A DNA stretch of 62,965 nucleotides, filler included, from Basidiobolus ranarum (GCA_040143965.1; 26 parts of 26 records of this genome joined end to end with filler, not necessarily neighbours in it), one strand, 5' to 3'; shown: positions 4,870 to 60,000, counted from the first letter of the whole stretch. Program-made: numbers and translations. The notes: generated by a model from the letters alone, not told the origin.

Positions 4870-6314
4870 TTTGATTGTGGAATATGAATGCTTAGCTAAT
4901 GGGGCTCAGATGGGTGATTATTTTATTAATGCTAATATCATTGTATGTATTTGTGACACTCCTGCCAACAGTAAACTTGGAGGTTTTTGCAGGTACAATT
5001 CATTGCTACTATTCAAATGCAAAGACTGGAAGTATTGGATATGTTTATGTTCAAGTTGAATCTTGGAAAGACTTCTGACTGATAAGTATTGGCAAAATTG
5101 GTTGTAGTTTGTGGATATCATTAATATAGTTTTGCAGCATCAACTCATGTTGGCAGATCTCAGGAAAATATAGCAACTGTGCAACAATTTTGTAATTCAA
5201 AATGGAAAACTTTATTACAGGTTTAAAGAAGATGGCTAAGTCAATGCTGCTATTAAATCATTCCCTGCTGCATCTTTCACAATGATTAGAGATTATAGGC
5301 CCTTGCTCTACATTCTGGGAGTTCCCACCAGAGAGCACCTGTGGTGAAATGATGCTCTGTGTGAAATTGTCAGTAATACTGTATACTAATCTGAATTACA
5401 ATGGATCAGCAAAATCTTTGATGGATGTAATGTAATGGGTTAAAGAGACTCCTGAGTAAATTAATCTCAAAATAAAGGGCTCTTTTCAAAGTGCTCATGG
5501 GTTTTTGCATTGTATGAGCACAAAAACAGCAACTGAACCCAGTCCATGGACACAGAGTAAGTAACTATATAACTTAGACTAGTTTGTTTGTGTGATAGTC
5601 TGACAGTATGTCTAGGAAAGCTGCAAGACAGAATTCTGGTAAGATAGATCAAGAGATGCAGCATTAATGTTTTAGCCCTGGGTTTACCTATTCAAGCAAT
5701 GATACATTGGCTTGTGGAAGGACATTTGCTGACTGCAAGTAGGGGATATTTTTGCAGATTTCTTTACAGAAATTTGCCAAAATCCAAGAACTTATTCTCA
5801 TTGTGAATGGCAACAAGAGTCAGCTATTTGCCCAGTGTTAGTGCTTTTCAAAATTTCAGATTTTTAGCAACTGTTCCAACATTAGCTTGCTGATAAAGCA
5901 TATTGATTTTGTTGAGTTATGTCTGATCAGTCCAGTATGTGCATATGTAGAGACTAAACATAATAAGATTCTTGTATTTCCTCATTCTCATTATGGCGGG
6001 AATACAAAGCCTAGAATATTGAAATAAAGATGTGCATATTAATTCAAATATCCTGCAGCAATAAACCTAGTAATTTGCCATTTGAAGATTGAATTTTTGC
6101 AACAATTGCTGGAAACTAAATAACATATGCCAAGTATGATGATCTTTATTTTAATATGTGTAAATAACATCAAAATCTAATCAAGAAGGTGCCATCTCTC
6201 CATCAAAATCCCTGGCAGAATGCAAGCCACCAATTTTGTGACAGTTCTCTGATGGTATTGCAATCCTGAAGTGTGGATCCAATTCAGTGCAAATCAATTT
6301 TATTTTTGTTAGGG
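4870..6314 (+). mobile_element. CMC/EnSpm (tnp2) transposase C-terminal relic running to terminus ...TTTTTGTTAGGG
   Basis: IVCICDTPANSKLGGF motif; continuous with the tnp2 copies at 13460-14230 and 60649-61460; same end at 50234, 34095 and 14231. Confidence 0.75.
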
Positions 6315-6619
6315 AATTTGAGTAAAAAACTGTAAATAGTGAGTGGCCATTTACCTAATTTAAACTGAGGCTATGGAAAATGAAAGCATACTTTTTGATG
6401 AATCACAAGATCTGTTCAGCACAATTTGTCTTCTTAGACAAAAGGCAATTGGGTGCTCCACATCATCATGAATCTAAATAAAAGCTCCTCCAAGGCATAG
6501 ATTGGGGCATCAGTATGGGGATGACATGACCTGTTGCAATCTGGAATCTCTAATGGAAGTGACTTGCTATTTGGTTGGGGGTTTACTTGAATTTTGCTGA
6601 TTTAGAACTAAGTTCTGAC

Positions 6620-7202
6620 ATTCAAAAACATGTATTTGTTGCTCTAACTATTCTAAATATCCAATGGATCACTTCCACCTATTTTCAATATTATCTCAAA
6701 TCACCTTAAATTTTCTTCCATTTTTAGCAGGCATGCTTGTCATAATCTAAGCTTGTCCAATAGCTCTATTTCATTGTAAACTATAAATAGCACATATTCA
6801 ATTTGACAAAACTTAAGTGTCTAATTCACAAATCCAAATCTTGTCTAAAACACTTCAAATCCCCTAGCACTTTTATCAAATTATGAGCCCCAAGCAAGCT
6901 GTTAGAGGAATGTCTACCAGTACTAGTATCAACGTGTTTGCATCCACAGAGAAGTTTGATGGTGATGACTTTCACCTTTGGAAGTTCAAGGTGCAAATGG
7001 TGCTATAAGACAAGGACCTTTGAGGATTTGTTACAGGAGAAGAAATAGAAACAAAGGGACTACCAGAAGCTATCCTTGCCTTTCACAAGAAGCAAAGGAA
7101 AACACTCTCAACACTTTGTCTACATCTCAGAGATTCTCAATTGAGGCACATACAATCAGCCAAAAACATCCCAAATGCTTGGGAAACACTTGAGGGGCTA
7201 GA
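6620..7202 (+). mobile_element. Copia family B LTR remnant, PBS and gag start
   Basis: ATTATGAGCCC PBS; FASTEKFDGDDFHLWKFK. Confidence 0.85.
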
Positions 7203-7302
7203 NNNNNNNNNNNNNNNNNNNNNNNNNNNNNNNNNNNNNNNNNNNNTTAATTAATTAANNNNNNNNNNNNNNNNNNNNNNNNNNNNNNNNNNNNNNNNNN
7301 NN

Positions 7303-7588
7303 CTTCGCCATCGGTCTTGGTTCGATTCCTTTCCTCATTATGAGTGAATTAATGCCTACCAACGCTATTTCTACCACCACCAGTTTCACCCTCACAGTTA
7401 ATTGGCTATCTAATTTTGTCATCGGTCTCATTTTCCCCACTCTCTCGGATGTTATGAATGGCTATGTCTTCATTATCTTCGCTTCATGCTGCGCTGTAGG
7501 CTTCTTAGGAGTTCTCTTCTTCGTCAGAGAAACCAAGGGAAAGAGTATTGAAGAGTTGACTGCCGGAAGTTACAGTAACAAGAACTAA
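7303..7588 (+). CDS. MFS sugar porter (GLUT/HXT-like), C-terminal part, 5'-truncated by contig edge
   Basis: FAIGLGSIPFLIMSELMP..VNWLSNFVIGLIFP..RETKGKSIEEL are typical sugar-porter TM10-12 and PETKG-like motifs. Confidence 0.92.
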
Positions 7589-8192
7589 TCACCCAATAAT
7601 TATTGCATATATTCTTGTAGAGAAATTTGAGCATCGAGAAATAAAATAAACGTACACATTCCATCGAATCTGGTTTTCAACATAGAATAAAGAATCAAGG
7701 TAATCATTTGGCATGCACCTGTCTATTTCCATAGTTACCTTGAGTTACCATAGAGACTATGTAATCGCCAAATTAGGGATGTTTACTATCAATCAAATAG
7801 GGTATGTAAGGTTTCATAATCCGTAAAAGGGGATTAACCACGCACCAATTTGGGTAAAGCCTGGGCATAACTTGTATTGGATAGACTACTTTGTCCAACA
7901 ATATAAGTATTAAGCCTGCGTTGTTAAAGCTTCACCATTAATGAAAATCCAGATTTTGAGAGGAGTGGGAAATCCGGAAACAACAGGTGCTACATATGCA
8001 GCAATGAGTTCAACCCTTTTGTAATACTCAGTATGCAGTAGTTACGAATATTTATTGTACAAAACCAGTGCTCGCTAGCGTAAGGTTTTATATATTATTT
8101 TATTATGTCAAGTCTAAGCATCAAATATAGTCTGTAGGGTTAGGGTTTAATAAAATTGGAGATAACCTCTGACACATGGCAAAAGAAAAAGC

Positions 8193-8692
8193 GTTCAAAG
8201 ACTTACTCTGTATCAAATGTTTAGGATAGCAATAATATACACAGAATTCGATAACCACACAGGATTGTTCGCTTTTTGAGTTGGTCTACTGCTGCTTAGC
8301 CGGTGGAGAGAGGTTCCTTCAATCTGTAAAAACGTTCTGGTCTTCCCCCATTTGAGCACAAGTTAAAAAGGATATGTCAAAGTAGCATCCAGGTCATGAT
8401 TCCAAAGCCAAAGGGGAGAACCTACAGCGTATTAGCCATGACCTTTACACACTGTTGGTTTTTGCACCTGAACAGAAATTAGGTTGGAATTAGCATTTAC
8501 CTTAAAAGGACACAATAGCATACTTTTTTCTTTTGTATGGTCTAGGATTTTGGACTTTTTGAAACATTTCCAGTTCACCATTCTGGCAAGTAGGGCACAG
8601 ACTTGAAGCTTTAAACTTGCCAAGGAGGTATAGCTGGAAGCTTTCTTTGGCTATCATTTTTCTCATTCCAACACCTTTATTGGGTTCATGAG
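8193..8692 (-). pseudogene. Fanzor1 (eukaryotic TnpB) C-terminal relic with intron and conserved 3' non-coding motif
   Basis: HEPNKGVGMRKM..FQLYLLGKFKASSLCPTC (degenerate RuvC-II/Zn), intron 8468-8500, CKNQQC, LWNHDLDA (RuvC-III), GRPERFYR; has frameshifts. Confidence 0.82.
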
Positions 8693-8960
8693 ACTTTGTC
8701 CTATCATCAATAAAGGTCATAAAATACCTTTTTCCACCTAAGGATTTTGTCTGCATTGGGCCACATAGATTTGAGTGTATCAGACCCAATTTTTGATCAA
8801 TTTTGTTCATTCCAGAGCCCACAAATGGCTGTCTGTGTTGCCTATCATATAGGCAACCTTCACATAGCTCCAGATCTTGTGGAATTACAAAATTTAGTCC
8901 CAAAACCAACTTGTTTTTGATTAAATTAGGGTTAGGGGGGATGAAAAGCACCAGATGGTA
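8693..8960 (-). pseudogene. Copia integrase fragment
   Basis: CEGCLY..LIHSNLCGPMQTKSLGGKRYFMTFIDD. Confidence 0.88.
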
Positions 8961-9274
8961 TGAACTCTATTTAGCTTAAATACTAAGCTAAACAAAGTGA
9001 CAATCAAGACATCAATCTTTTAAGATATTTTGACAATACTGGATAATATCCATACTTCACCAGATGATCAATGTAATCAAGTTCAGAGGATGTAAATATA
9101 GTGTTAAGGGGCAAAGGTGGTAAGCAGAAAGGAAGGTACTCAGTACAAACCAGATGGACAATAGGACAAAAGCCTGGAATAATAGGAATCACAAAAGGTG
9201 TATTAGAGGCAAGGTATTGCTTCCAAAGGTCTAGCTGGAAGTCTACCACAACAATTTTAGGCTGTTTTGTTTCT

Positions 9275-9563
9275 GTTGGATAATTAATCTTTATTCAACA
9301 TCATAGTTAACTTTAGTTATGATACATATATCAAAAACAGAAAGCAATGTATCTATAGCCCCTATATTCTAAATAGGAATATCTCTATATCTATATAACA
9401 AGTATATCTTATTACATAAACTCCTGAATATCTCAAACAATTGATTTACTTTTCTACTATATAAGTCACCATATACTCATGAGAATAAACTAACTAAAAC
9501 ACACTATCATAAGTTGCTTCTAACACTCAAAGTCTACCCCCATTATGTCAAGATCCTCCAACA
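9275..9563 (+). repeat. Copia family D LTR followed by PBS TGGTAGCAG; copies at about 15290-15604(-), 26978-27293, 31376-31485 and 48375-48452(-)
   Basis: TGTTGGATAATT...GATCCTCCAACA; a purine tract precedes the copy at 26978. Confidence 0.88.
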
Positions 9564-9735
9564 TGGTAGCAGCAAGTGAATTAGAGTCTTCTTCCCAAAA
9601 GGAGATTACTAATATTCCAACATTCAATGGGGAAGNNNNNNNNNNNNNNNNNNNNNNNNNNNNNNNNNNNNNNNNNNNNTTAATTAATTAANNNNNNNNN
9701 NNNNNNNNNNNNNNNNNNNNNNNNNNNNNNNNNNN

Positions 9736-11070
9736 ATCAAGAATTGAGAATTTGACCTTAAATTATGTATTTGGTAGACTTTAGGATGAAGATTCACACA
9801 AATCAGGATCCAACCAAAAGAATGAAGAAAATGCTTTAATAGGCTATGGGAAACCTTCCTATAACAGTCAAAAGCACTTTAAGAGGAAGAGTAACACATT
9901 CTGTGATTACTGTAAAAGAACTGGCCATTTAAGCAAGGATTGTTTTAAAAGAATTGTAAAAGAAAAACATACTGAATCTGGAAATAAGGTTACAACAGAA
10001 GATCACTTGTTCATATCTGCTCTATCTATGACTACCAACAAGGATTCTCAGATGTGGTATATTGATTCTGGAGCTTCCCATTATTTCACCAATGAAAAAA
10101 ATTGGTTTGTGAAATGTGAAGAAATCCCAATGTGAAAGGTTTCATGGGAGATGACCACACATTGGATGCTATTGGAATGAGATCAATTCAAGTCAATTTA
10201 TCTGGAGCTTCTGAAGAGAAAGTGTATACTTTCAAGGATGTACTACATGTTCCAGCTATTGCCAAGAATTTAATACCTGTATGCAAGGCCACTTCAGAAG
10301 GCCTGAAATTCAATTCTTATAAGTCAGGATGCACCATCACTGATCAAAATGTGAATTATTTAGCTTTGGAAGAAAAGAATCAAAACTTTTACAAACATAC
10401 ATGTAATCAAAGAGATTTATTTGTAAATAAAAGTTGTTCCAATCAAGAAACTATTCAATTATGGCATAAGAGATTTGGTCATATTGGATATGATTGTTTG
10501 AGCAAAATCATCAAAAATTGCCCAATTTGTCAAACTCAAATTATCCCCCCAGCCAAAATGGAAGTTTGTGAGGGTTGCATATATGGAAAACAAGCCAGGC
10601 AAACATTCAAGAGCTCTGGTTTAATCAAATCTGTCAAAAATTTGGATCTAATTCATTCAGATTTGTGTGGACCTATGCAAAATTTATCTCTAGGCAAAAA
10701 TACATATTCAATCACATTTATTGATGATGATACAAGATACACTTGGGTCTACTTTATGGAAAGAAAAGAAGAAGCTCTCTTTATCTTTAGAGACTTTAAA
10801 ACACTTGTGGAGACTGAAACTGGAACTGAAATCAAAAAAATATGTACTGATAATGGTGAAGAATATACGTCAACACTATTTAAGCACATTTGCAAAGTTT
10901 GTGGAATTAAGCCAGAAACTACTGCCCTCTATTCATGTCAACAAAATGGAGTTGCTCAAAAGTTAACAGGACTATAATAGAAATGGCAAGATCTATGATA
11001 ATTGCACAAAATTTATTCAAAACTTTTAGGTGGAATCTGTTGCTATAGCTGTCTATCTGAAGAATAGGAG
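9736..11070 (+). pseudogene. Copia gag zinc knuckle-protease-integrase relic
   Basis: CDYCKRTGHLSKDC, WYIDSGAS, LWHKRFGH, LDLIHSDLCGPM, TDNGEEY, QQNGVA. Confidence 0.93.
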
Positions 11071-18102: not shown

Positions 18103-18400
18103 ACATTATTCTCGAAGATATTGAATTTTGGGATATAAACTCATCAAAACAATGATATTCATTCCTTATCTTAATCCCTTGTACTTTATATCTTTTGATA
18201 AACGTACATACCTTCCATTAATAAAAGGAATTTGTATACAAAACCCAGTAAGATAGGAGTGTGGGTGTTTTCATTTTAATGGTGCTAACAGTGTCTCTTA
18301 TCAATTAGTATTTGTAAATTGGTTATAACTGCCATACAAAACCTCAGCTCAACAGATATATAGCTGCTATTAGTATGCTTCATCTATTTACTAAGATTGA

Positions 18401-18887
18401 CTATTGCTCAAATAGATCCTTGAGTTTACGGAAGATCTCTCTCTCAGCAAATACTTGCTGTTCAGGATCGCTTGGTAGTTGTGAGCTCACGAAGAATTGA
18501 CGTTTAAATTTCAAAGCTATTTTCAACCCAAGAATCGACCACAGCTAGTTAGTAGACTCTTCAAGAAAGTGAGTATATTTAGTTTCTTACTCAAACGTCT
18601 GGCGAAATGATTCTTTGCATTGGTAGGTGAGTTTCCCAGTAGATTAGTGGCATTAATATTTGTGCCCTATGGTTGATATTAGTTTCAAAATCTATATAAA
18701 AGCGAGGTTCATGACTTGCCTGACGAGGTGGCATAGCAACAGCTAAGGTCTCAAGTGTTGGGGTGTTACCCATCCATACGAAAGCACTATCATCAAGAAG
18801 CAACACTTGAAAATAGATAGGCTCATTTAGATAGAGCGTAGAGAATTGATGTACTTTAAATTTGGGGTCGGCTGCTTCAGAAGTCAT
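18401..18887 (-). CDS. PSMG4: Proteasome assembly chaperone 4 (PAC4/PSMG4-like); exons 18720-18887, 18591-18666, 18401-18516; 119 aa
   Basis: Splicing a GC-AG intron (18667-18719) and a GT-AG intron (18517-18590) gives ..SAFVWMG..LAVAMPPRQ-GTNINATNLLG..FARRLTLKFKRQFFVSSQLP..FAEREI. Confidence 0.8.
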
Positions 18888-19453
18888 GACTCGAGCACAA
18901 AGTTATGATACCTTTGGGTTAGCGATGGGACAATGCTAATATTATCAAAGTAGTTTATTATCATGACTAGTTTAAACTATTTGAATAACTTTCATGGGTG
19001 GTATCAACTCTTCCAAAATTGGATTACTTTGGGGTTACTTCAAAGTAAGCAAGGCACCCTTGTATTTTTTTTCACTTGAAAAGAGAGGAAGCTATTGGTA
19101 TAAAAACCCAAGGATTCAATTCTGAATCTTCACCTTCTTCGCTCTCTCAATGCAGTATTAGGTAAGTCTATGATTTATATTGATTTTCTTTCATCACCAT
19201 CGTAAATGATGACACGTTACTCTTGAATGCAACTCCATGATTTTTATAACTTTATACCAATTGTTCCTACTGAAATACGATATTTTCCATTACATTTGTA
19301 TCTGATAATTCGTGATTATTCTAACCACTTATATATTTACAGGCAGCTGAGAGNNNNNNNNNNNNNNNNNNNNNNNNNNNNNNNNNNNNNNNNNNNNTTA
19401 ATTAATTAANNNNNNNNNNNNNNNNNNNNNNNNNNNNNNNNNNNNNNNNNNNN

Positions 19454-20650
19454 TCTTTGGGGCTAATTTCAACACTTTGAAAAGTACAAGTTGAGGTTGT
19501 AGAGCTGTGAGTTTTATTTGCTGGTGTTTTGGCTTGTTGAGAGGTGCCAGGTGATGGATAAACTCTCAAATATAGCACTCTTCAAACTGGTGTATCTGGT
19601 TCCATGGTACAATTAAGCTTTTTTGCCAGTATATCTGACTCTGGAAATGCAGATCTTTGTAATGGAGTGAAGAATTTGGAACTGAGACAGTAGAGCCTAA
19701 ACTTAATGGCTCCTTGCTTTTCCCTTGGGTTTACAAACTTCCTGCTCCTTAAGTACTTTTTTAGCTCCTTTTCTTTCTTTACCAAGTTGATAATTGTGTA
19801 CATTCTTGAAATGTTTCATCAATAGGCCTATACTAGCCCAATTGCCATTTGCTTGCAAAAACCCAGTGTAAGCCACATGAAATAAGTCAAGAACCTTCAG
19901 AGAAATGCCTGGTGTTTTGTTTTTCCACAATTGGCTCAAATCTAGGTGATTTTGGGCAAGATTCTACATGGTTTCCAAAATGTTTAGCTGCTCATCATCA
20001 GAGCAAGTGATGGCAGCTCTGACATTCAGAGTCTTTTGGTTTGCCAGTTTTCCTATCAGATTTCTACTTTCATGTGACCAAGCAGTTTCAGGTCATTGTG
20101 TAGGCTTAATGGTCCGGCACATATACTGCTCTGCTAGATTGTCATGGTAACATTCATATGTATAGTGTGCAATTGTTTGAAATCCCATATGAGAATGGAT
20201 TCAGGGAGCAGCACCTGGCTCTGGCTCAAGTATGGCATTCCAAAGGTCTTGTATCCTTGTTGAGTGACTCTCTAACTTTTGACTAGTTCCTTCCAAATGC
20301 TGCATTAATTGCAATATTGCGGCATTATTACTTGTCATGGCCTGTATAGCAACTTTGTAGTTTTGACTTATCATTGCATACAAATCATTATGGTGTTCTG
20401 CCTGCAATTCCCTTGTTGTAATAATTCTATCAGCAGAGGATTGTTCAATAGTGGGTAAAGTAGACATTTTGAAAGTTGATGGTCATTACAGTGTTTTGGT
20501 TGAACTTTGCTCAACTCTTGATTTACTCGGTAATATGGCAATTACAATCTCTTCACTTGCACCATTGCTGGAAAGGAACACATCTGGTTATATGATTAAT
20601 GCTTCATTATTACTTGAGTTAGTTTCCGGCATGTTAGTGGCTTCCAAAGT
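19454..20650 (-). pseudogene. Repeated orphan ORF, probably the accessory gene of the EnSpm element; copies at 36436-36810, 37880-38759, 46131-46720 and 58570-59430
   Basis: Shared IITTRE-QAEHHNDLYA sequence; the copy at 46131-46720 ends about 250 bp from the element terminus at 46971. Confidence 0.6.
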
Positions 20651-20656
20651 GGATAG

Positions 20657-21780
20657 TATTGAAGTTTATTGTCTTTATCACATTTGTTATCTCTATCTTT
20701 ATACATCTAACTATTTCATATATCACATATAAGTTAGTTAACATCACTTAGTCAAATATCACTAAACTGAAAATTGGAACATATATTATATATATATGAG
20801 AATAATATGAGAATTAGCAATTCCATATTGGAAATTTCAAGCTCTTCCAAATTACCCCAAAGATAGCTCATTTTACTCCCACAGATGTTCTGAACACAAC
20901 CTGAGTGTTAGTTTTCTCTATTTCTATCAAAATGTATAAATGTTTTATTTCTGGTCAATAAATAATTATCTCACAAAGCTATTCACAACTCCTCTTTTCT
21001 AAAGTTCCTCCAAACAGCCCATATGTTCCCATCAGATTATGAGCCCCATGTTGTAACCTTTATAGCATGACAGAAACCACTACTACCACCTTTATTAACT
21101 CAAGTGTTGACAAGCTTGATGGGGTAAATTACAATTTATGGAAGTTCAAGATGCCAATCATGCTGGAAGACAGGGAGCTTTGAGATTTAGTCTCTGGAGA
21201 TGAAAAGGAATCTTCTGACCCTTCTTTACTGAAAGCTTACAAGAAAAGAGATAAGAAGGACTTTGATGTCATTTATCAAAGCTTGAAGGATTCACAACTT
21301 GTTAATATTCAATATGCAAAGACTTCCCATCAAGCTTGGATTATATTAGAAGAGGGTCATGAAGCAAAGAGTCTTGCTAATAGCCTCTTTCTGAGACAAA
21401 AATTCTTCAATATAAAGATGAAAAGTCTTTAAGCATGGTTACTCATATTGCAAATGTGAGATCTTTGGCAAAACAACTGGAAAGTATTGGTGCAACTTTA
21501 CAGGAAGAAGATGCCATTATCACTCTTCTAGGTAGTCTATCAGAACAGTATTCAAACTTAGTCACAGCATTAGATGCAAGATCTGACAAGCTTTCTTTGC
21601 AGTTTGTGTTGGCAAGGCTAAAGAATCAACATCTCAGAAGTGAGAATTTGAAAAAGAATCTGAGAAACAGGCACTTTTTGGAGCTGGAAAACATAGCTTT
21701 GGCAAGTACAAAGGTTACAAAAGAAGGAAACCAGGTTTATGCTATGGTTATAACAAGCCAGGGCATCAGTTAAAAGATTG
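20657..21780 (+). mobile_element. Copia family A LTR, PBS and gag relic
   Basis: MTETTTTTFINSSVDKLDGVNYNLWKFK; LTR matches 13060-13439. Confidence 0.9.
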
Positions 21781-52829: not shown

Positions 52830-53954
52830 ACATAATCGTAACGGCTTTTCCGATCTATGTTTGCAGAAAGATTAGTACTCAATAAGTATATTTGATAAGC
52901 AAGCTCAGTTCTAGTATATACGCCTAAATCTTAAAACAAATGATCTCATTTTGGTAATTGCGGTCGGATATGGAATCCTCTTTAAATCTTAATGGCCTCT
53001 GATGATTATTGTTTTTGGTCATTCCGAATAGTGGACACAAAATACAAACAGCGGCTTATCCGGATTCTCTGAAACAAAAGAATATAGGCTAAATAGTCTT
53101 GACTTAGCAAATGATAACATGATGCGTTTTCCTAGATCTTTGGAAACCGGATTCTTGGGCTACCAGACCCCACCAATCTGAGAATTCCAGTACTTAAGCT
53201 ATCCATCTCGTGTTGTTCTGGGCTATACTGTTCACCGTTAGGAAAATAGCTAATGGTCCAAAAGTTTATTGGCTTTCCCAACCGTATACAAGCNNNNNNN
53301 NNNNNNNNNNNNNNNNNNNNNNNNNNNNNNNNNNNNNTTAATTAATTAANNNNNNNNNNNNNNNNNNNNNNNNNNNNNNNNNNNNNNNNNNNNCTAACGC
53401 AGTCCAATACTCGTGTCACTCTCCTGTAATATAGATATGTTTGACGAGCTATATTGCACAATTAGGAAAGTTTCCAGAAGTTTAAATCCAATCATTTAGT
53501 ATCCAAAGGTTGAGTTCACTGTACGAATCAGGAAGGCCTCGAGAAGCTTTCCATGTTTGATCATGTACTCAATAAAGCCTGTTACTAAATGAATCATGAG
53601 AGTAATACTGTTCACCTTTCTTTTCACTTCTTTCGAATTTCCTTTTTCTGATTTTCTCCCTCTGGTGCGTTTCGAATGTGCAGACAATATAAGTTTCTTA
53701 TATTTGTATCGACATTTAAGGAATCACTGCTCAATAGGGTGAGGGTGCAAAGGCATAGAGGTACTACAACATTTGATTGGTATATCTCAAACCAACTCCT
53801 AAGATGGGGAGTTATCAATATCGTATGTCCTTATATTAATTTGTGGTCACCTAATTTTATTAGAAACAAATCAAACACTTTATAACAAGTACATCGCACT
53901 GCCTCGGAATTTTTCCTTCGTCTCAATAATCAACTTCAACTCTATTCATACATA

Positions 53955-54723
53955 ATGGATCATAGTGGACATGATATGGGTGGTATGACAATGCCAATGC
54001 CCAGTAGTGGTGGTGGTGGTGGTGGCAGTGGTTTGGCATTGCCACCTCTCAATCCTTTGGACCCCATGTATAACGGTGGAATGAGTAGAGGTAGTAGCGG
54101 CGTGACTCCTTCTGGTGGTAGCGGTGGTGGCAATCCACTAAATCCCTCTCCACTTCCTCCTGCAGCTTGTGCAATGAATGTATTGTATGCCATATGTTTT
54201 CACCAAAGATCCGTATGGTTACTGAATTTCTTGCTTTTCAATCCTTTACACGTAGATGGTCTTCACTTGGGATTACAGCAATATGTGCTTGGTGTTCGAC
54301 AATTGGCAGGTTCGTTCTAGTGGTGGTTTGGTAGCTGCTTGTATCGTCACTTTTGCAATTGCTGTTGCTTATGAATTGATCCGGTGGGGGATTCGGGTCA
54401 CTGATCGACGCATCTTTAAAAATGAGAAAGCACTGAAAGATTCCAGCCACAAGAATGGGTTTTTTGTCTATACGTAGGTTACTCATAAATATATCGTAAA
54501 ATGCAGAAATAGATTCTAACAACTTCACAGTGTTCCTTGGGTGAAACAAATACTTCGCGCCCTTCTATATGCAATCCAAGTCCTTATATCCTTCTTTCTA
54601 ATGCTTATCATTATGAGCTACAACGGATATATAATGTTTAGTCTTGTTCTTGGTGCATTTGTTGGGTTTCTTCTATTCTGCAGAGATGGAATACATGGCT
54701 CGCAGTCTGCCGGTTGCCATTAA
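53955..54723 (+). CDS. Ctr copper transporter; exons about 53955-54179, 54256-54473, 54531-54723
   Basis: Met/His-rich N-terminus MDHSGHDMGGM, CAMN|MVFTW..LVFDNW, MxxxM (MLIIM), SYNG, C-terminal GCH. Confidence 0.93.
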
Positions 54724-55530
54724 GCCTTTTTTCTCCTAAGGCATTATTTCTCAATTTTAACAGAATTCTTAGTTCACTATGCAGCCATATCCATTTAAAC
54801 ATTACTTCATTAAAAGCCTCAAAGTTCGGCTAAAGTATCTAATTCCACCTTCATCTTTTATGTACATAACAATAAAGTCACTATGTATTCTTTACAAGAA
54901 CATCTGCGATTCAGTAAACGGATAGTCCTCATTCACGTGACCACCATATGCATGCCATTACGTTTCAAAATTCAATGATGAAGCAATGAATGGTGATATC
55001 AATTCAAACTAAACAAGCTTCCATCAGTTTTCCATCAGGCTACTATATTAGGGTAGATGAGGTCTAACGCAGAGTAACTCTTCTACCGGGTTTCCTTATT
55101 TGAGACGACACTATTGATAACTATACCCCAATACTTCTTTTCCACTGAATGGATGGTATGACATTAGATGCGTTTAATAGCCCAATACAGGTTTTTGGTG
55201 AAACAGAACGGTGGCGAATAACTTCTAGTTGATATCCTTAAACGTTCAGCCCCTTTAACTTGGCCTTGCCGATGACGAGTGAGTTTGATCTCAGGTGAGT
55301 TTTTGATTCTCGCTGATTTAACACACCTTTGATATTAATTCAATAAGTTTTAATAGATCGGGTGAGGAGCCTAATATCACTTCTGAGCAGATCGATTTGT
55401 TCGCACCATGTACTTGACTCGAGAGTCGAAATTCACTTAAATATGATTCCCTAGACTATCAATCGTACCGTTCCCTCTAAGTTTCTTTCACTTGTGGGAA
55501 GATACATCCTTACTAGACCTTTTCGTAAAA

Positions 55531-55712
55531 ATGGATCACAGTGGACACGACATGGGTGGCATGAACATGCCTAGCGCTGGTGGAAGCGGTAGTGGATTGG
55601 CATTACCACCATTAAACCCCCTTGACCCGATGAGCAACGCTGGTGGAAGCATGAGCGGTATGGATCACAGTGGGCACAACACAGGAATGTGTAGTATGCA
55701 AGTAAGTATACT
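55531..55712 (+). CDS. Second tandem Ctr copper transporter, first exon
   Basis: MDHSGHDMGGMNMP..LALPPLNPLDPM..MCSMQ followed by GTAAGT donor. Confidence 0.85.
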
Positions 55713-55812
55713 NNNNNNNNNNNNNNNNNNNNNNNNNNNNNNNNNNNNNNNNNNNNTTAATTAATTAANNNNNNNNNNNNNNNNNNNNNNNNNNNNNNNN
55801 NNNNNNNNNNNN

Positions 55813-56920
55813 TTTTAAAAAGTTTCGAGCCAAGATCTGAATTGGGTTTGGAATTAAGTTTTAATTATAGTTCTTATTTGAGTTCTAAATTAAACTTGTT
55901 GCAAAATTATTTTTAAAAACTTTTTAATCTCGGATATGAATTTGGTTTTGGTTTGGTTTTAAAAAGTTTCGAGCCAAGATCTGAATTGGGTTTGGAATTA
56001 AGTTTTAATTATAGTTCTTTTTCGAGTTCTAAATTAAACTTGTTGCGAAATTATTTTTTAAAAACTTTTTAATCTCGGATACGAATTTGGTTTTGGTTTG
56101 GTTTTGGGTTTAAAAAGTTTCGAGCCAAGATCTGAATTAAGTTCTAATTATAGTTCTAAATTAAAGTTTGTACGAAATAATTTTTTAAAAAGTTTTTAAT
56201 CTCGGATACGAATTTGGTTTTGGTTTGGTTTTGGGTTTAAAGAGTTTCGAACCAAGATCTGAATTGGGTTTGGAATTAAGTTTTAATTATAGTTCTTCTT
56301 CGAGTTCTAAATTAAACTTGTTGCGAAATAATTTTTAAAAACTTTTTAATCTCGGATACAAATTTGGTTTTAAAAAGTTTCGAGCCAAGATCTGAATTGG
56401 GTTTGGAATTAAGTTCTTATTATAGTTCTAAATTAAACTTGTTGCGAAATAATTTTTAAAAAAAACTTTTTAATCTTGGATACAAATTTGGTTTTAAAAA
56501 GTTTCTAACGAAAAAACAAATTAAGATCTTATCCAAGTTCCAAATTAAAGTTTGTACGAAATTATTTTTAAAAAAATTTTTAATCTCGGATATGAATTTG
56601 GTTTGAAAAAGTTTCTAACAAAGAAACAAATTAAGATCTTATTCAAGTTCCAAATTAAAGTTTGTATGAAATTATTTTTTAAAAAGTTTTTAATCTCGGA
56701 TACGAATTTGGTTTTGGTTTTGGTTTGGTTTGAAAAAGTTTCTAACGAAGAAACAAATTAAGATCTTATTCAAGTTCCAAATCAAAGTTTGTACGAAATT
56801 ATTTTAAAAAGTTTTGAGCCAAGATCCGAATTGGGTTTGGAATTAAATTCTTCTTCAAGTTCCAAATTAAAGTTTGTACGAAATAATTTTAAAAAGTTTT
56901 AAAACAGTTTCTAACAAAGG
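55813..56920. repeat. AT-rich tandem array of about 125-150-bp units, virus-like repeat family
   Basis: TTTTAAAAAGTTTCGAGCCAAGATCTGAATTGGG recurs at about 55813, 55957, 56108, 56236 and 56367; TAATCTCGGATACGAATTTGG in each unit. Confidence 0.92.
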
Positions 56921-56976
56921 AACATTGTTAAATTATTTTATGACAATCATGGGTTTTTAAAAATAAAATAGGTCTA

Positions 56977-58128
56977 TCATAGGTGATCAGTTGGAATCCT
57001 AAGAGTGCAATTATCTGTGCCAATAGTGTTGTTGTACATAACTTTTATGTCTCCCATAAGTTTGCAAGCCCTCCTGTTAAGATACCCTGTAGATGCGGTA
57101 CTAACACCAGTGTTAACAATTCCCTCCCTGGCTGCCATTTGATGAACAAAAAATTCATACGGGTTTAATCCTTTGACATATGAAGAAGTTATGTATCCAT
57201 TTTGTAATTGGTTGTCAAGGTCGTTAGAATATTTGTAGGGTAATTGGCATTTGACAGGTTCACCGTACATGTATTGTTGACCCAATTGTTCGCTGATTTG
57301 GGTGATGTTTAATTTGTTCCCCTTGGCCCCTGATGATACCATACTTTTGAGACCCTTACCTGGAAAGTGGCACTCTTTTGATATTGTGGATAACCCCCTC
57401 CAATGCAAATATCTAATGCATATCTTCTGCAGGTTAAAAACAAACTCGACTCCTTGTTTGGAAGTTAGTTTTTTTAGAATATTATTTAAAACAGATTTAG
57501 TAACAATCTCGTCGTTGTATACGGTACTATCACATCCATTTGGTATTGCCAAACGAAATAAATTTTTGCCAGAAAAACGTACATTTTTTGGAAATAGTGT
57601 CTGTTTGCAGAAGAAAAAGCAATCCATAAATATTTTGGGGGATATTGGTTCATCGTTTAGAGTCATGAGATATGATCCTGTGATAGTATCTTGGATAGGA
57701 GGCGGGGGTTTTGTGTTTGTGACTTCAAGTAAGACATTAAATTCGTGTTCTATGTTTGGAATGACAAAAATAATCATCTCGTCGCCATCGAAATCTGCGT
57801 TAAAAAATGGAGTTACCAAAGGATTAATATAAATGGTTTTGATGTTATCTTTTCTAACTTTAACTTTAAATCCCAAAACGGAAGTGCCAGTTAGGGAAGG
57901 TTGGCGGTTGAGAATTATTTCATCATCATCTGATAGCAATCTTTCGTAATTATGGTTTACAAAAATTAAGTCTGGGTCATCAATGAGAAAGTCGCTGTTG
58001 GGTAAAAACAGATTTTTTTTGTTGGAAAAGTATTTGTGGTTGTATTTGTGAATACGGATGGGGATACGAATGTTGTCAGAGATGTATTTGGGGATGAAGA
58101 TAGTATTGTAATCTAGATAGGGATCTCC
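56977..58128 (-). CDS. Multisubunit RNA polymerase largest subunit (Rpb1/beta'-like), compact, ending just after the bridge helix; 5'-truncated by contig edge
   Basis: Frame open from the contig edge: GDPYLD..IFIP, LNRQPSL, FNADFDGDEM, IQDT, MVSSGAKGN..QISEQLGQQ, GYITSSYVKGLNPYEFFVHQMAAREG..TASTGYLNRR. Confidence 0.95.
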   Translation of the reverse strand, partial: GDPYLDYNTIFIPKYISDNIRIPIRIHKYNHKYFSNKKNLFLPNSDFLIDDPDLIFVNHNYERLLSDDDEIILNRQPSLTGTSVLGFKVKVRKDNIKTIYINPLVTPFFNADFDGDEMIIFVIPNIEHEFNVLLEVTNTKPPPPIQDTITGSYLMTLNDEPISPKIFMDCFFFCKQTLFPKNVRFSGKNLFRLAIPNGCDSTVYNDEIVTKSVLNNILKKLTSKQGVEFVFNLQKICIRYLHWRGLSTISKECHFPGKGLKSMVSSGAKGNKLNITQISEQLGQQYMYGEPVKCQLPYKYSNDLDNQLQNGYITSSYVKGLNPYEFFVHQMAAREGIVNTGVSTASTGYLNRRACKLMGDIKVMYNNTIGTDNCTLRIPTDHL

Positions 58129-60000
58129 GGNNNNNNNNNNNNNNNNNNNNNNNNNNNNNNNNNNNNNNNNNNNNTTAATTAATTAANNNNNNNNNNNNNN
58201 NNNNNNNNNNNNNNNNNNNNNNNNNNNNNNGCTTTGGTTTCCTAAAGAGATATAGCATTGTAGCAGGAAAGTATAGTGGAAAATCATTATGTAGGCCTCA
58301 ATCAAAATAAGTAAAGTAGTCAAAATCTTGATTAATTCTCAATACATCCATACTCAAAGATATTCATTGAGAGCTCTAGACTTAAGACACTATGAATAAA
58401 GCTTCCATCATCTTTTGAATGTGCAATAATGTCTAAAAGTACTTTTCTCAAATATACCACAAAAGTAAAATAAACTGTTTCCAAAACGGTAAATAACATT
58501 GTGCCGGATAGTGCCCAATCATGCCAATTTGTGCTGGCACACTTTTTAGCTGGCCTGATCTGGCTCAATAAAATGGAACAAGTCTGTTAACTAGTTGCTT
58601 TTAAATGCTTCATTGATTGCAATAATGCTGCAATACATGGGCCTGTATAGCAACTTTGTAGTTTTTACATATGATCACATACAAATCATTATAGTGTTAT
58701 GCTTGAGATTCCCAGGTTGTAATGATTCTATCTAAATAGCCTATAGAGAGGTGTTCAATAGTTGGCAAAGTAAGCTTTTTGGTTGTTGATGGTCTTATTG
58801 GGGTGTCTGTTGAACTTTGCTCAACTATTGATTTACTATGTAGTTGGGGGATTAAAATCTCTTTACTTACACTATTGCAGGAAAGGAACACATCTGTTAA
58901 ATTGATTAATACTCCATCATTACTTGAGTTAGTTTACATCATGTTAGTGCCTTCCAAAGGGGTTAGTGGATTGCCAGACTGCTCATCAAATAAGTCCTCT
59001 GTTCTTGCTGGTTTTTTTACTTTTGGGCCAACAGGCTTTTGCTTGGAAGCCAATTTTGATTTCAATTTTGAACAATTTTTTAAAGGTATTGAAATACTTG
59101 GATGGTAAAGTGAATGTAATGAAATTGCTTAGATACAGCTTTTGATAAATCAAAATTCCGCCAATTACTGGAAATATCTTTTAAATCCCATAATGACCCA
59201 TATGTGACACTTTCTCATAAGCAGCTGATGCAATATATTGGCTATTCCTAAAATACCATCCTTATGTGGTGGGTGTTCTTTTCCTACAATATTCTTATGA
59301 TGCTGCAACTCAAATTTTAAAGAAGCCTTGCTATTATATTTGCAAATTTTTGTGCTACAAAAGCTGGTGACTTCATGGAAAAAAATTACCACAAGCATAG
59401 CCACTGTACAATCCCAGCAGCTGCACAAAGCCTGGTAAGTCTTAATAGTAATAAGTGCATAAAGTAACTTTAATTTGGCCCACTGAGTCTGTAGGCTGTG
59501 CTTTGTCTCAAAATTTGGTTAACACTGCTGAAAGTCAAGAGACCATGCTTTTACCATAGTTATGTGACCAGCTTGATGTAGGTAGTAGTGCAGGTTTTGT
59601 TGAATCAGTAAGTCCAGAAAACTTGGAAGACATGCTGCTAGATGTTGACCTTAGTGATTCCAGTACTGTGGTGGTATATAAGAAGATGAAGAGGAAGACA
59701 ATGGCTTGTTATGGAGTCTTTGTTATTGGCAATCATCAGTCCACTCATAATAATCCAGAGCTTGATCTAAAGTCTGTGGTTTGTCACAGAATGCTGCATA
59801 AGCATATACATCATCATTGGAAGTTTTCCACCAGTTTCCTGGCTTATTTCTCCATGTGGATGATCTTCTGTGTCCTGAATCATCTTTTGATGTAAAGGGG
59901 ATAAGGATTTTGCTTGAATAGGGCTCAGATACAGCTGGAATTTTGCAAGAAACTTCCTGAGTTGTGATGATGGTGTTTTTGGGATCATGGATGATGATTT

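Follow-up and report, generated by a model that had tools for sequence, protein, structure and literature searches.

Introduction

DNA viruses of fungi are, to our knowledge, almost unknown as particles and are met mostly as genomic fossils. The closest described systems to the one considered here are the endogenous elements of nucleocytoplasmic large DNA viruses (NCLDV), termed "fundsalphaviruses", which a screen of 1,006 fungal genomes recovered from 14 species, Basidiobolus meristosporus and B. heterosporus among them (Gong, Zhang and Han 2020, Virus Evolution 6:veaa008, PMC7017919). In the sections of that paper drawn on here, the elements are placed close to Pithovirus by their DNA polymerase and carry RP1n, RP1c, RPB2, RPB5, D5 and an SNF2 helicase near the DNA polymerase gene. 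Here we describe an open reading frame (ORF) on the minus strand of a 62,965-base stretch (the window) of the Basidiobolus ranarum assembly GCA_040143965.1. We propose that this ORF, the query in all comparisons below, very probably makes up the 3' two-thirds of an RP1n gene, RP1n being the N-terminal piece of a split largest subunit of RNA polymerase (RNAP), belonging to a compact Nucleocytoviricota-type clade and lying as an endogenous viral element on a Basidiobolus-like fungal contig.

The window copy resembles the fundsalphaviruses in host genus, in NCLDV type and in a matching gene set that includes parts of RNAP subunit 1, and its compact split clade is probably the fundsalphavirus RP1n. 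The two differ in that the published group was defined by DNA polymerase, whereas the window copy is known from RP1n alone, and in that neither the compaction nor the lost rim helices nor the precise point of the split is covered in the available part of the published text. Archaeal RpoA'/Rpo1N is, like the query, the N-terminal half of a subunit, terminating shortly past the bridge helix and leaving the trigger loop to a second protein, but it has ~870-910 aa and complete funnel helices, ends ~35-45 residues later and forms a separate clade. Rpb1 of RNA polymerase II (Pol II) shares the catalytic and bridge-helix motifs and is the best sequence match among solved structures, but it is unsplit, has a longer stretch between those motifs and again forms a separate clade. 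The nearest neighbours in our tree, L077 and L007 from giant-virus metagenome-assembled genomes in IMG/VR, likewise come from genes that stop shortly after the bridge helix; their long-split N-terminal piece differs in having ~900 aa and a full pore and funnel, and it ends ~40 residues further downstream.

Results

A polymerase gene cut by a contig end

In the window, 26 contigs sorted by falling length from 2335 down to 2317 bp have been strung together artificially, with spacers of the form N44-TTAATTAATTAA-N44 between them; adjacent contigs are unrelated, and features that stop at a spacer mark assembly breaks. The ORF lies on contig 24 (55813-58130, 2318 bp), which holds only the ORF and a repeat array, without a host gene, and has a GC content of 0.306 compared to a median of 0.354 for the other 25 contigs. 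Sense codons span 58128 down to 56980 and are followed by TGA at 56977-56979 and then by TAG; the chance of such a frame staying open at this base composition is ~5e-12. The frame has no start and stays open as far as the spacer at 58131. The "intact" frame of about 384 codons described in an earlier note, which was made from the sequence of the window alone, is therefore a gene cut by an assembly break. Residue 1 of the ORF aligns with residue 239 of the B. ranarum homologue KAK9680029.1, and by this alignment about 238 N-terminal residues are missing through the contig end.

Pfam profiles for Rpb1 domains 2 to 5 matched the ORF above their cut-offs, namely domain 2 (PF00623; 70.7 bits, 2.3e-19), domain 3 (PF04983; 33.9 bits, 3.5e-8), domain 4 (PF05000; 33.2 bits, 5.3e-8, profile positions 48-85 of 107 only) and domain 5 (PF04998; 59.5 bits, 4.5e-16, first 53 positions only), and domain 1 is absent because the contig ends. 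The catalytic motif and the bridge helix named in the note, NADFDGD and TASTGYLNRR, were recovered in this frame of 383 codons plus stop (Table 1). NADFDGD is invariant in the family alignment, TGYLNRR occupies residues 347-353, and SGAKG occupies residues 266-270 as part of SMVSSGAKG, which aligns with the Pol II motif MVxSGAKG. The active-site motif, the Pfam domain series, the bridge helix and the funnel core together place the ORF among the RNAP largest subunits. The trigger loop is not part of the polypeptide, the stop preceding it, as expected for a split subunit.

Relatives of the ORF share its stop after the bridge helix

A search of 1.84 billion representative proteins gave 6314 matches at E ≤ 0.001. 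The top matches were not polymerases of 1400-1900 aa but proteins of ~450-750 aa, and the query aligned with their C-terminal two-thirds such that the ends coincided (query 1-373 on residues 221-571 of P0003, 576 aa; query 1-377 on residues 216-605 of P0004, 607 aa). Matches to this compact family reached E values of 1e-72 to 1e-110, a hidden Markov model (HMM) of the family (A1) matched the ORF at 2.3e-152, and a word-indexed search returned 119 matches at E ≤ 1e-10 within a length band of 210-671 aa. The closest named homologues came from Basidiobolus, which bears out the early-diverging fungal host that had been proposed: the best match was the hypothetical protein KAK9680029.1 of B. ranarum (83% identity over 209 residues, gapless), which carries the N-terminal 238 residues that the window lacks, and the hypothetical protein ORX96701.1 of B. 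meristosporus, encoded on a 154-kb contig, was 69% identical. A chytrid relative from Clydaea vesicula was also among the matches, the rest being metagenome proteins on contigs of up to 97 kb.

The ORF stops 30 residues beyond TGYLNRR, and the early stop pointed out in the note proved to be a property of the whole family. Of 14 aligned sequences, two (P0152 and P0077) are truncated, and the 12 that extend to the C-terminus all finish at one position and share the ending ...YN-GTIG......I-F, the position of which corresponds in unsplit homologues to QF just before the YGEDG motif. Among 366 stored proteins, 122 matched both motif patterns, and 102 of these 122 are shorter than 800 aa and stop 24-40 residues past the motif of the bridge helix. 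The bridge-helix pattern used for this count was written for the compact family and misses the Pol II form. When stored proteins and locus ORFs covering the family HMM were classed (461 in all), 136 were compact-split, 73 long-split and 252 unsplit. These comparisons indicate that the stop is a conserved gene end; since it recurs across more than 100 relatives of ~570-670 aa, it is neither an assembly error nor an intron boundary.

The query alone found no relative in IMG/VR, a family-specific degenerate bridge-helix pattern gave 0 matches there, and a search of IMG/VR with the family member P0154 also found none, while P0187, P0190 and P0165 all reached one IMG/VR contig, L161. Scans of IMG/VR and metagenomes with the family alignment, which used generic DFDGDEM-type patterns, returned mostly ordinary giant-virus, archaeal and eukaryotic genes, with L001 and L082 as the only compact forms. 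A "phages" collection gave distant matches only (Mollyvirus at 33%).

One family member had an additional domain. In P0242 (JGI metagenome, 594 aa, on a 2.9-kb contig), residues 556-592, which lie beyond the point where domain 5 begins, match a TFIIS-type zinc ribbon (PF01096, 1.1e-10). The polymerase piece may here be fused to the ribbon of a cleavage factor, or gene calling may have read through.

The rim-helix hairpin of the funnel is deleted

The rim helices of the secondary channel are the docking place of TFIIS. To compare this region, segment lengths were taken from anchor motifs on an hmmalign alignment of the 66 sequences used for the tree below. From the GLS/GFS motif to SGAKG, the query has 22 residues, compared to 89 in Pol II (n = 5), 88-89 in archaea (n = 5), 67-99 in unsplit IMG/VR sequences (n = 16) and 75-89 in long-split sequences (n = 11); the compact family (n = 24 including the query) spans 21-69 residues with a median of 48. 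Between HWRGLS and KSMVSSGAKG, for which about 10 residues had been estimated, we counted 13. The distance from NADFDGD to TGYLNRR is 237 residues in the query and 356 in the five Pol II sequences, and the query additionally lacks 10 residues after the active site and 38 in pore 1. An AlphaFold2 model built from a 40-sequence alignment (pLDDT 84.3, pTM 0.79) contains just a 5-residue helix between helices 223-243 and 258-266. The rim-helix deletion in the query is thus real.

The earlier note had described the subunit as lacking the funnel/rim helices. Residues 746-758 of Rpb1 form a funnel core motif that is common to all DNA-dependent RNAPs in the part consulted of the survey by Ruprich-Robert and Thuriaux (2010, PMC2919709). 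Because the corresponding SMVSSGAKG is kept in the ORF, it is the rim-helix hairpin that has been lost and not the funnel as such. The word "minimal" likewise holds in part: the compaction is genuine, but the small size of the frame is partly due to truncation by the contig end. A structural comparison with Pol II, which the note had proposed, was run with Foldseek, and the model fitted archaeal Rpo1N (8oki_A, the top match at 1.2e-21) and Pol II Rpb1 at ~1e-21, in alignments that use 507-544 columns for the 383 query residues.

A chytrid-associated branch of the family, consisting of P0240 (Clydaea vesicula, 452 aa), P0224, P0238 and P0049, is smaller still. Its members have 73-87 residues from the active-site motif to SGAKG, compared to 156 in the query, and have lost most of pore 1 as well.

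The compact family groups with giant-virus sequences and apart from Pol II

By sequence, the ORF matched solved structures of Pol II (4e-35), archaeal Rpo1N (2e-31), Pol III (5e-28), Pol I (3e-26) and African swine fever virus (3e-17), all of them far weaker than the matches to the compact family. We inferred a tree by IQ-TREE quick search under LG+C20 from 66 hand-picked rows (24 compact, 16 unsplit from IMG/VR, 4 unsplit from metagenomes, 11 long-split, 5 Pol II, 5 archaeal and 1 from Gonapodya), with ~395 stored sequences left out. The compact family formed one clade (SH-aLRT 99), in which the query grouped with P0003 and P0004 (99). This clade lay within a 99-supported group of 30 together with the giant-virus sequences L077, L007 and L054 from IMG/VR metagenome-assembled genomes and three metagenome sequences, while Pol II formed a separate clade (100) and the archaeal sequences stood at the root. 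Every named viral match in BFVD was distant, at ≤24% identity, the second-best fold match being a 905-aa "Pithovirus LCPAC104" protein, which, like L077 and L007, we count among the split RPB1 forms of giant viruses; the nearest ESM Atlas clusters carry a Nucleocytoviricota label, which we take as a lead only. The compact and the sister long-split forms could have arisen by one shared split followed by trimming or by two independent splits; both are possible.

This placement bears on whether the ORF could be a paralogue or pseudogene of host Pol I, II or III, with its stop and deletion as assembly errors. The best match among solved structures is indeed Pol II Rpb1, but identity to Cryptococcus Rpb1 is 27-43% and confined to two blocks, Pol II is a separate clade with full support, and more than 100 independent sequences share the stop position and have deletions of this kind. 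The ORF is also not unsplit, has no full pore and funnel and does not group with fungal Rpb1, and neither the ~880-aa length and full funnel of archaeal RpoA' nor a grouping with A' was found. We therefore regard a host origin as extremely improbable, in agreement with the earlier view that this is not a host polymerase; the Pol II, Pol III and Pol I matches at 4e-35, 5e-28 and 3e-26 contrast with 1e-72 to 1e-110 within a clade whose 99% support sets it apart from Pol II.

Relatives of the ORF lie among giant-virus hallmark genes

Three loci with compact RP1n allowed us to view the surrounding genes. L001 (IMG/VR, 40-kb contig) encodes a 780-aa split RP1n together with a D5-like primase-helicase, a capping enzyme with methyltransferase, DUF2738 and DUF5757, while L082, a 16.5-kb metagenome contig, encodes RP1n, D5_N, DUF5757 and a family-B DNA polymerase. 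L161 (IMG/VR, 51.7 kb), with 53-68% identity to three family members, encodes a 610-aa RP1n, an 891-aa RPB2, DUF5757, a SNF2/DEAD helicase and a MutS-HNH protein. These neighbours are giant-virus hallmark genes and, together with the position of the ORF among IMG/VR giant-virus sequences in the tree, uphold the proposed large-DNA-virus type.

A polymerase of a yeast-type cytoplasmic linear plasmid (pGKL2-like) would also be a compact, reduced RNAP in a fungus, and such plasmids do encode reduced enzymes according to the consulted part of PMC2919709. However, judged by published architecture alone, the plasmid enzyme is a fusion of Rpb2 to Rpb1 (PMC2919709, same part), whereas full-length members of the compact family have the clamp-core zinc motif of Rpb1 at their start, and in L161 RPB2 is a gene of its own nearby. 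Moreover, relatives lie on contigs of up to 97 kb with a family-B DNA polymerase, D5 and capping enzyme. The chance that the ORF derives from such a plasmid is therefore negligible.

Several genes at these loci are of interest in themselves (Table 1). The RPB2 that adjoins compact RP1n in L161 is itself short, and the MutS protein there has a C-terminal HNH nuclease. A DUF5757 protein of 625-742 aa lies close to RP1n in all three compact loci; no solved relative of it was found.

The C-terminal partner, RP1c, would carry the trigger loop. Two candidates were ruled out by their hhalign probability against the C-terminal profile, the DUF5757 gene (0.6%) and a 376-aa ORF in L001 (0.1%). A 366-aa ORF in L082 without a Pfam match was colinear with 286 columns of the C-terminal profile, starting at the trigger-loop motif and continuing to the end, at an hhalign probability of 59% and an E value of 9e-5 with filters off, a weak match to a very divergent locus. 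By this colinearity it may be a candidate for a highly diverged compact RP1c. In the sister-clade locus L077, a 913-aa N-terminal ORF is accompanied by a separate 546-aa C-terminal ORF 1.4 kb upstream.

State of the copy and weight of the evidence

Of 52 columns with at least 90% conservation in the family, the ORF agrees at 50; the median number of deviations among family members is one. One of its two deviations, G to N, recurs in all three Basidiobolus copies; the other is a change from Asn to Ile directly behind NADFDGDEM that only the window copy shows, with Asn present in 129 of 133 relatives. The CpG observed/expected ratio of the ORF is 0.65, as in gene-bearing contigs of the window (0.34-0.90) and unlike the retroelement-like contigs (0.02-0.14, with TpG/CpA excess), so that the CpG-retaining frame of the earlier description is confirmed. 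The conserved columns and the CpG level imply that the copy is young or has been shielded from the CpG depletion acting on repeats; a recent insertion, an expressed gene and non-integrated viral DNA are all conceivable.

In the last case, the contig would derive from a virus present in the sequenced culture in replicating or episomal form. The open frame, the conserved positions and the undepleted CpG, together with a contig that carries no host sequence and has a GC content below the median, all fit such a virus. However, homologues are present in two other Basidiobolus assemblies, one of them on a 154-kb contig, and the consulted part of Gong et al. calls such elements endogenous and reports stops and frameshifts in some copies. 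A replicating genome would also normally give long contigs of high coverage and not a 2.3-kb piece broken in a repeat, and the DEMN-to-DEMI change at a strongly kept position hints at relaxed constraint. On balance, we consider a free virus unlikely.

A viral gene kept by the fungus as an expressed, domesticated polymerase piece would likewise account for the open frame and the gene-like CpG level, as well as for the gapless 83% identity to the B. ranarum copy. Yet no use is known for half a catalytic subunit that lacks RP1c and RPB2, the proteins of the copies diverge by 17-31% from species to species, and every copy is seen as a fragment. Domestication thus seems very unlikely.

Several points weigh against our preferred reading of the ORF as an endogenous, split viral RP1n. 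A C-terminal HMM for the trigger-loop partner RP1c found no match in the window, and no RP1c was found at E ≤ 1e-3 within ~10 kb of RP1n in L001, L082 and L161. When the protein database was searched with a profile of the giant-virus C-terminal half, the best 120 of 939 matches were other giant-virus forms and none was from Basidiobolus. The two-piece beta' that had been suggested stands as far as the stop conserved across the family is concerned, but the trigger-loop gene that it calls for was not found in the window. The consulted text of PMC7017919 does not say if the labels RP1n and RP1c refer to separate genes or to a pair of domain matches. The tree was built by quick search without Pol I, Pol III or named NCLDV references and contains four long branches. 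We infer host integration of the window copy only from other Basidiobolus assemblies and from Gong et al., because the contig carries no host gene. Finally, a copy so well kept in its frame, its conserved columns and its CpG level is compatible with a live or recently active virus or a gene in use.

Other features of the window

Beyond the stop lies a tandem array and not coding sequence, as had been reported. Its 28-nt core occurs 7 times in the array and nowhere else in the window, and a search of the array for inverted repeats gave AT-rich low-complexity palindromes only. The other contigs have ordinary eukaryotic content, including copia-type gag and integrase, a pyridoxal-phosphate-dependent enzyme and an alpha/beta hydrolase.

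CpG content in the window is bimodal, with 13 of 26 contigs at an observed/expected ratio of 0.02-0.14 and a TpG/CpA excess of 1.16-1.47 and the rest at 0.34-1.53. All three low-CpG contigs that were scanned carry copia-type gag or integrase, and contigs with ordinary genes are among the higher-CpG rest. This looks like repeat-targeted CpG decay in this fungus, by methylation or a process resembling repeat-induced point mutation. Two ORFs at opposite ends of contig 53394-55712 have near-identical Met/His/Gly-rich starts (MDHSGHDMGGM...) and probably represent a single host gene in duplicated or allelic form.

Table 1. Positions of features in the window and in loci with compact relatives.
Sequence	Feature	Positions	Strand	Remarks
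Window	5'-truncated ORF, N-terminal piece (RP1n) of split compact RNAP largest subunit	56977..58128	-	383 sense codons and TGA
Window	NADFDGD catalytic Mg-binding loop, residues 110-116	57781..57801	-	followed by EMI, not the family EMN
Window	Junction without funnel rim helices, RGLST...SGAKG, 22 residues	57319..57399	-	SGAKG core kept
Window	Bridge helix, model residues 343-359	57052..57102	-	contains TASTGYLNRR
Window	Artificial spacer between two unrelated contigs	58131..58230	.	cuts the 5' end of the ORF
Window	Artificial spacer	55713..55812	.	other end of the 2318-bp contig
Window	AT-rich tandem repeat array, periods ~110-127 bp	55813..56925	.	at least 7 copies of 28-nt core; from just 3' of the stop to the contig end
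Window	Met/His/Gly-rich ORF	53955..54320	+	
Window	Met/His/Gly-rich ORF	55492..55764	+	
L161	RPB2	5391..8063	-	891 aa
L161	MutS protein	18143..20893	-	C-terminal HNH nuclease
L001	DUF5757 protein	4988..7216	+	
L082	DUF5757 protein	8870..10876	-	
L161	DUF5757 protein	8035..9909	-	
L082	366-aa ORF, candidate RP1c	7736..8836	-	

Discussion

We interpret the ORF as part of an RP1n that, in full, would have ~620 aa and comprise the clamp-core zinc site that the truncated ORF lacks, the catalytic Mg-A loop with NADFDGD, a pore-1 domain of reduced length, the funnel core minus the rim-helix hairpin and the bridge helix, ending just before the YGEDG position of unsplit enzymes. In the virus, this piece would assemble with a separately encoded C-terminal piece containing the trigger loop, cleft and jaw and with a compact RPB2, and the assembled split RNAP would transcribe viral DNA. 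The window copy itself is presumably inactive today. The interpretation offered in the earlier note was thus largely right and its observation partly confirmed, but the suggestion of an undescribed lineage was overstated, since Gong et al. (PMC7017919, in the part consulted) already report such elements in Basidiobolus.

A point that may be new is the degree of reduction in this polymerase clade. The literature searches turned up nothing on split or compact NCLDV RPB1 among the papers listed, the Guglielmini preprint, in the part available, makes no statement on split genes, and the term "fundsalphavirus" was found in one paper only. A more far-reaching reading, which we put forward tentatively and consider rather doubtful, is that the family represents a large unnamed clade of giant-virus relatives with the most reduced cellular-type RNAP of the phylum (RP1n of ~600 aa, RPB2 of ~890 aa, rim helices deleted and, in one relative, a TFIIS zinc ribbon fused to RP1n in their stead), that its natural hosts are early-diverging fungi (Basidiobolus and chytrids) and that the window copy comes from a recently active virus and not from an old fossil. 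The support cited for it consists of at least 136 stored sequences, contigs of up to 97 kb and the lack of a close named virus in BFVD.

On the reading that we prefer, the copy is one more well-preserved viral fossil in Basidiobolus, a contig-end fragment of a kind of element already published. If the enzyme were active, it would be a natural minimal version of a Pol II-like core and would raise the question of how factors for transcript cleavage can act when the site at which they usually dock is gone.

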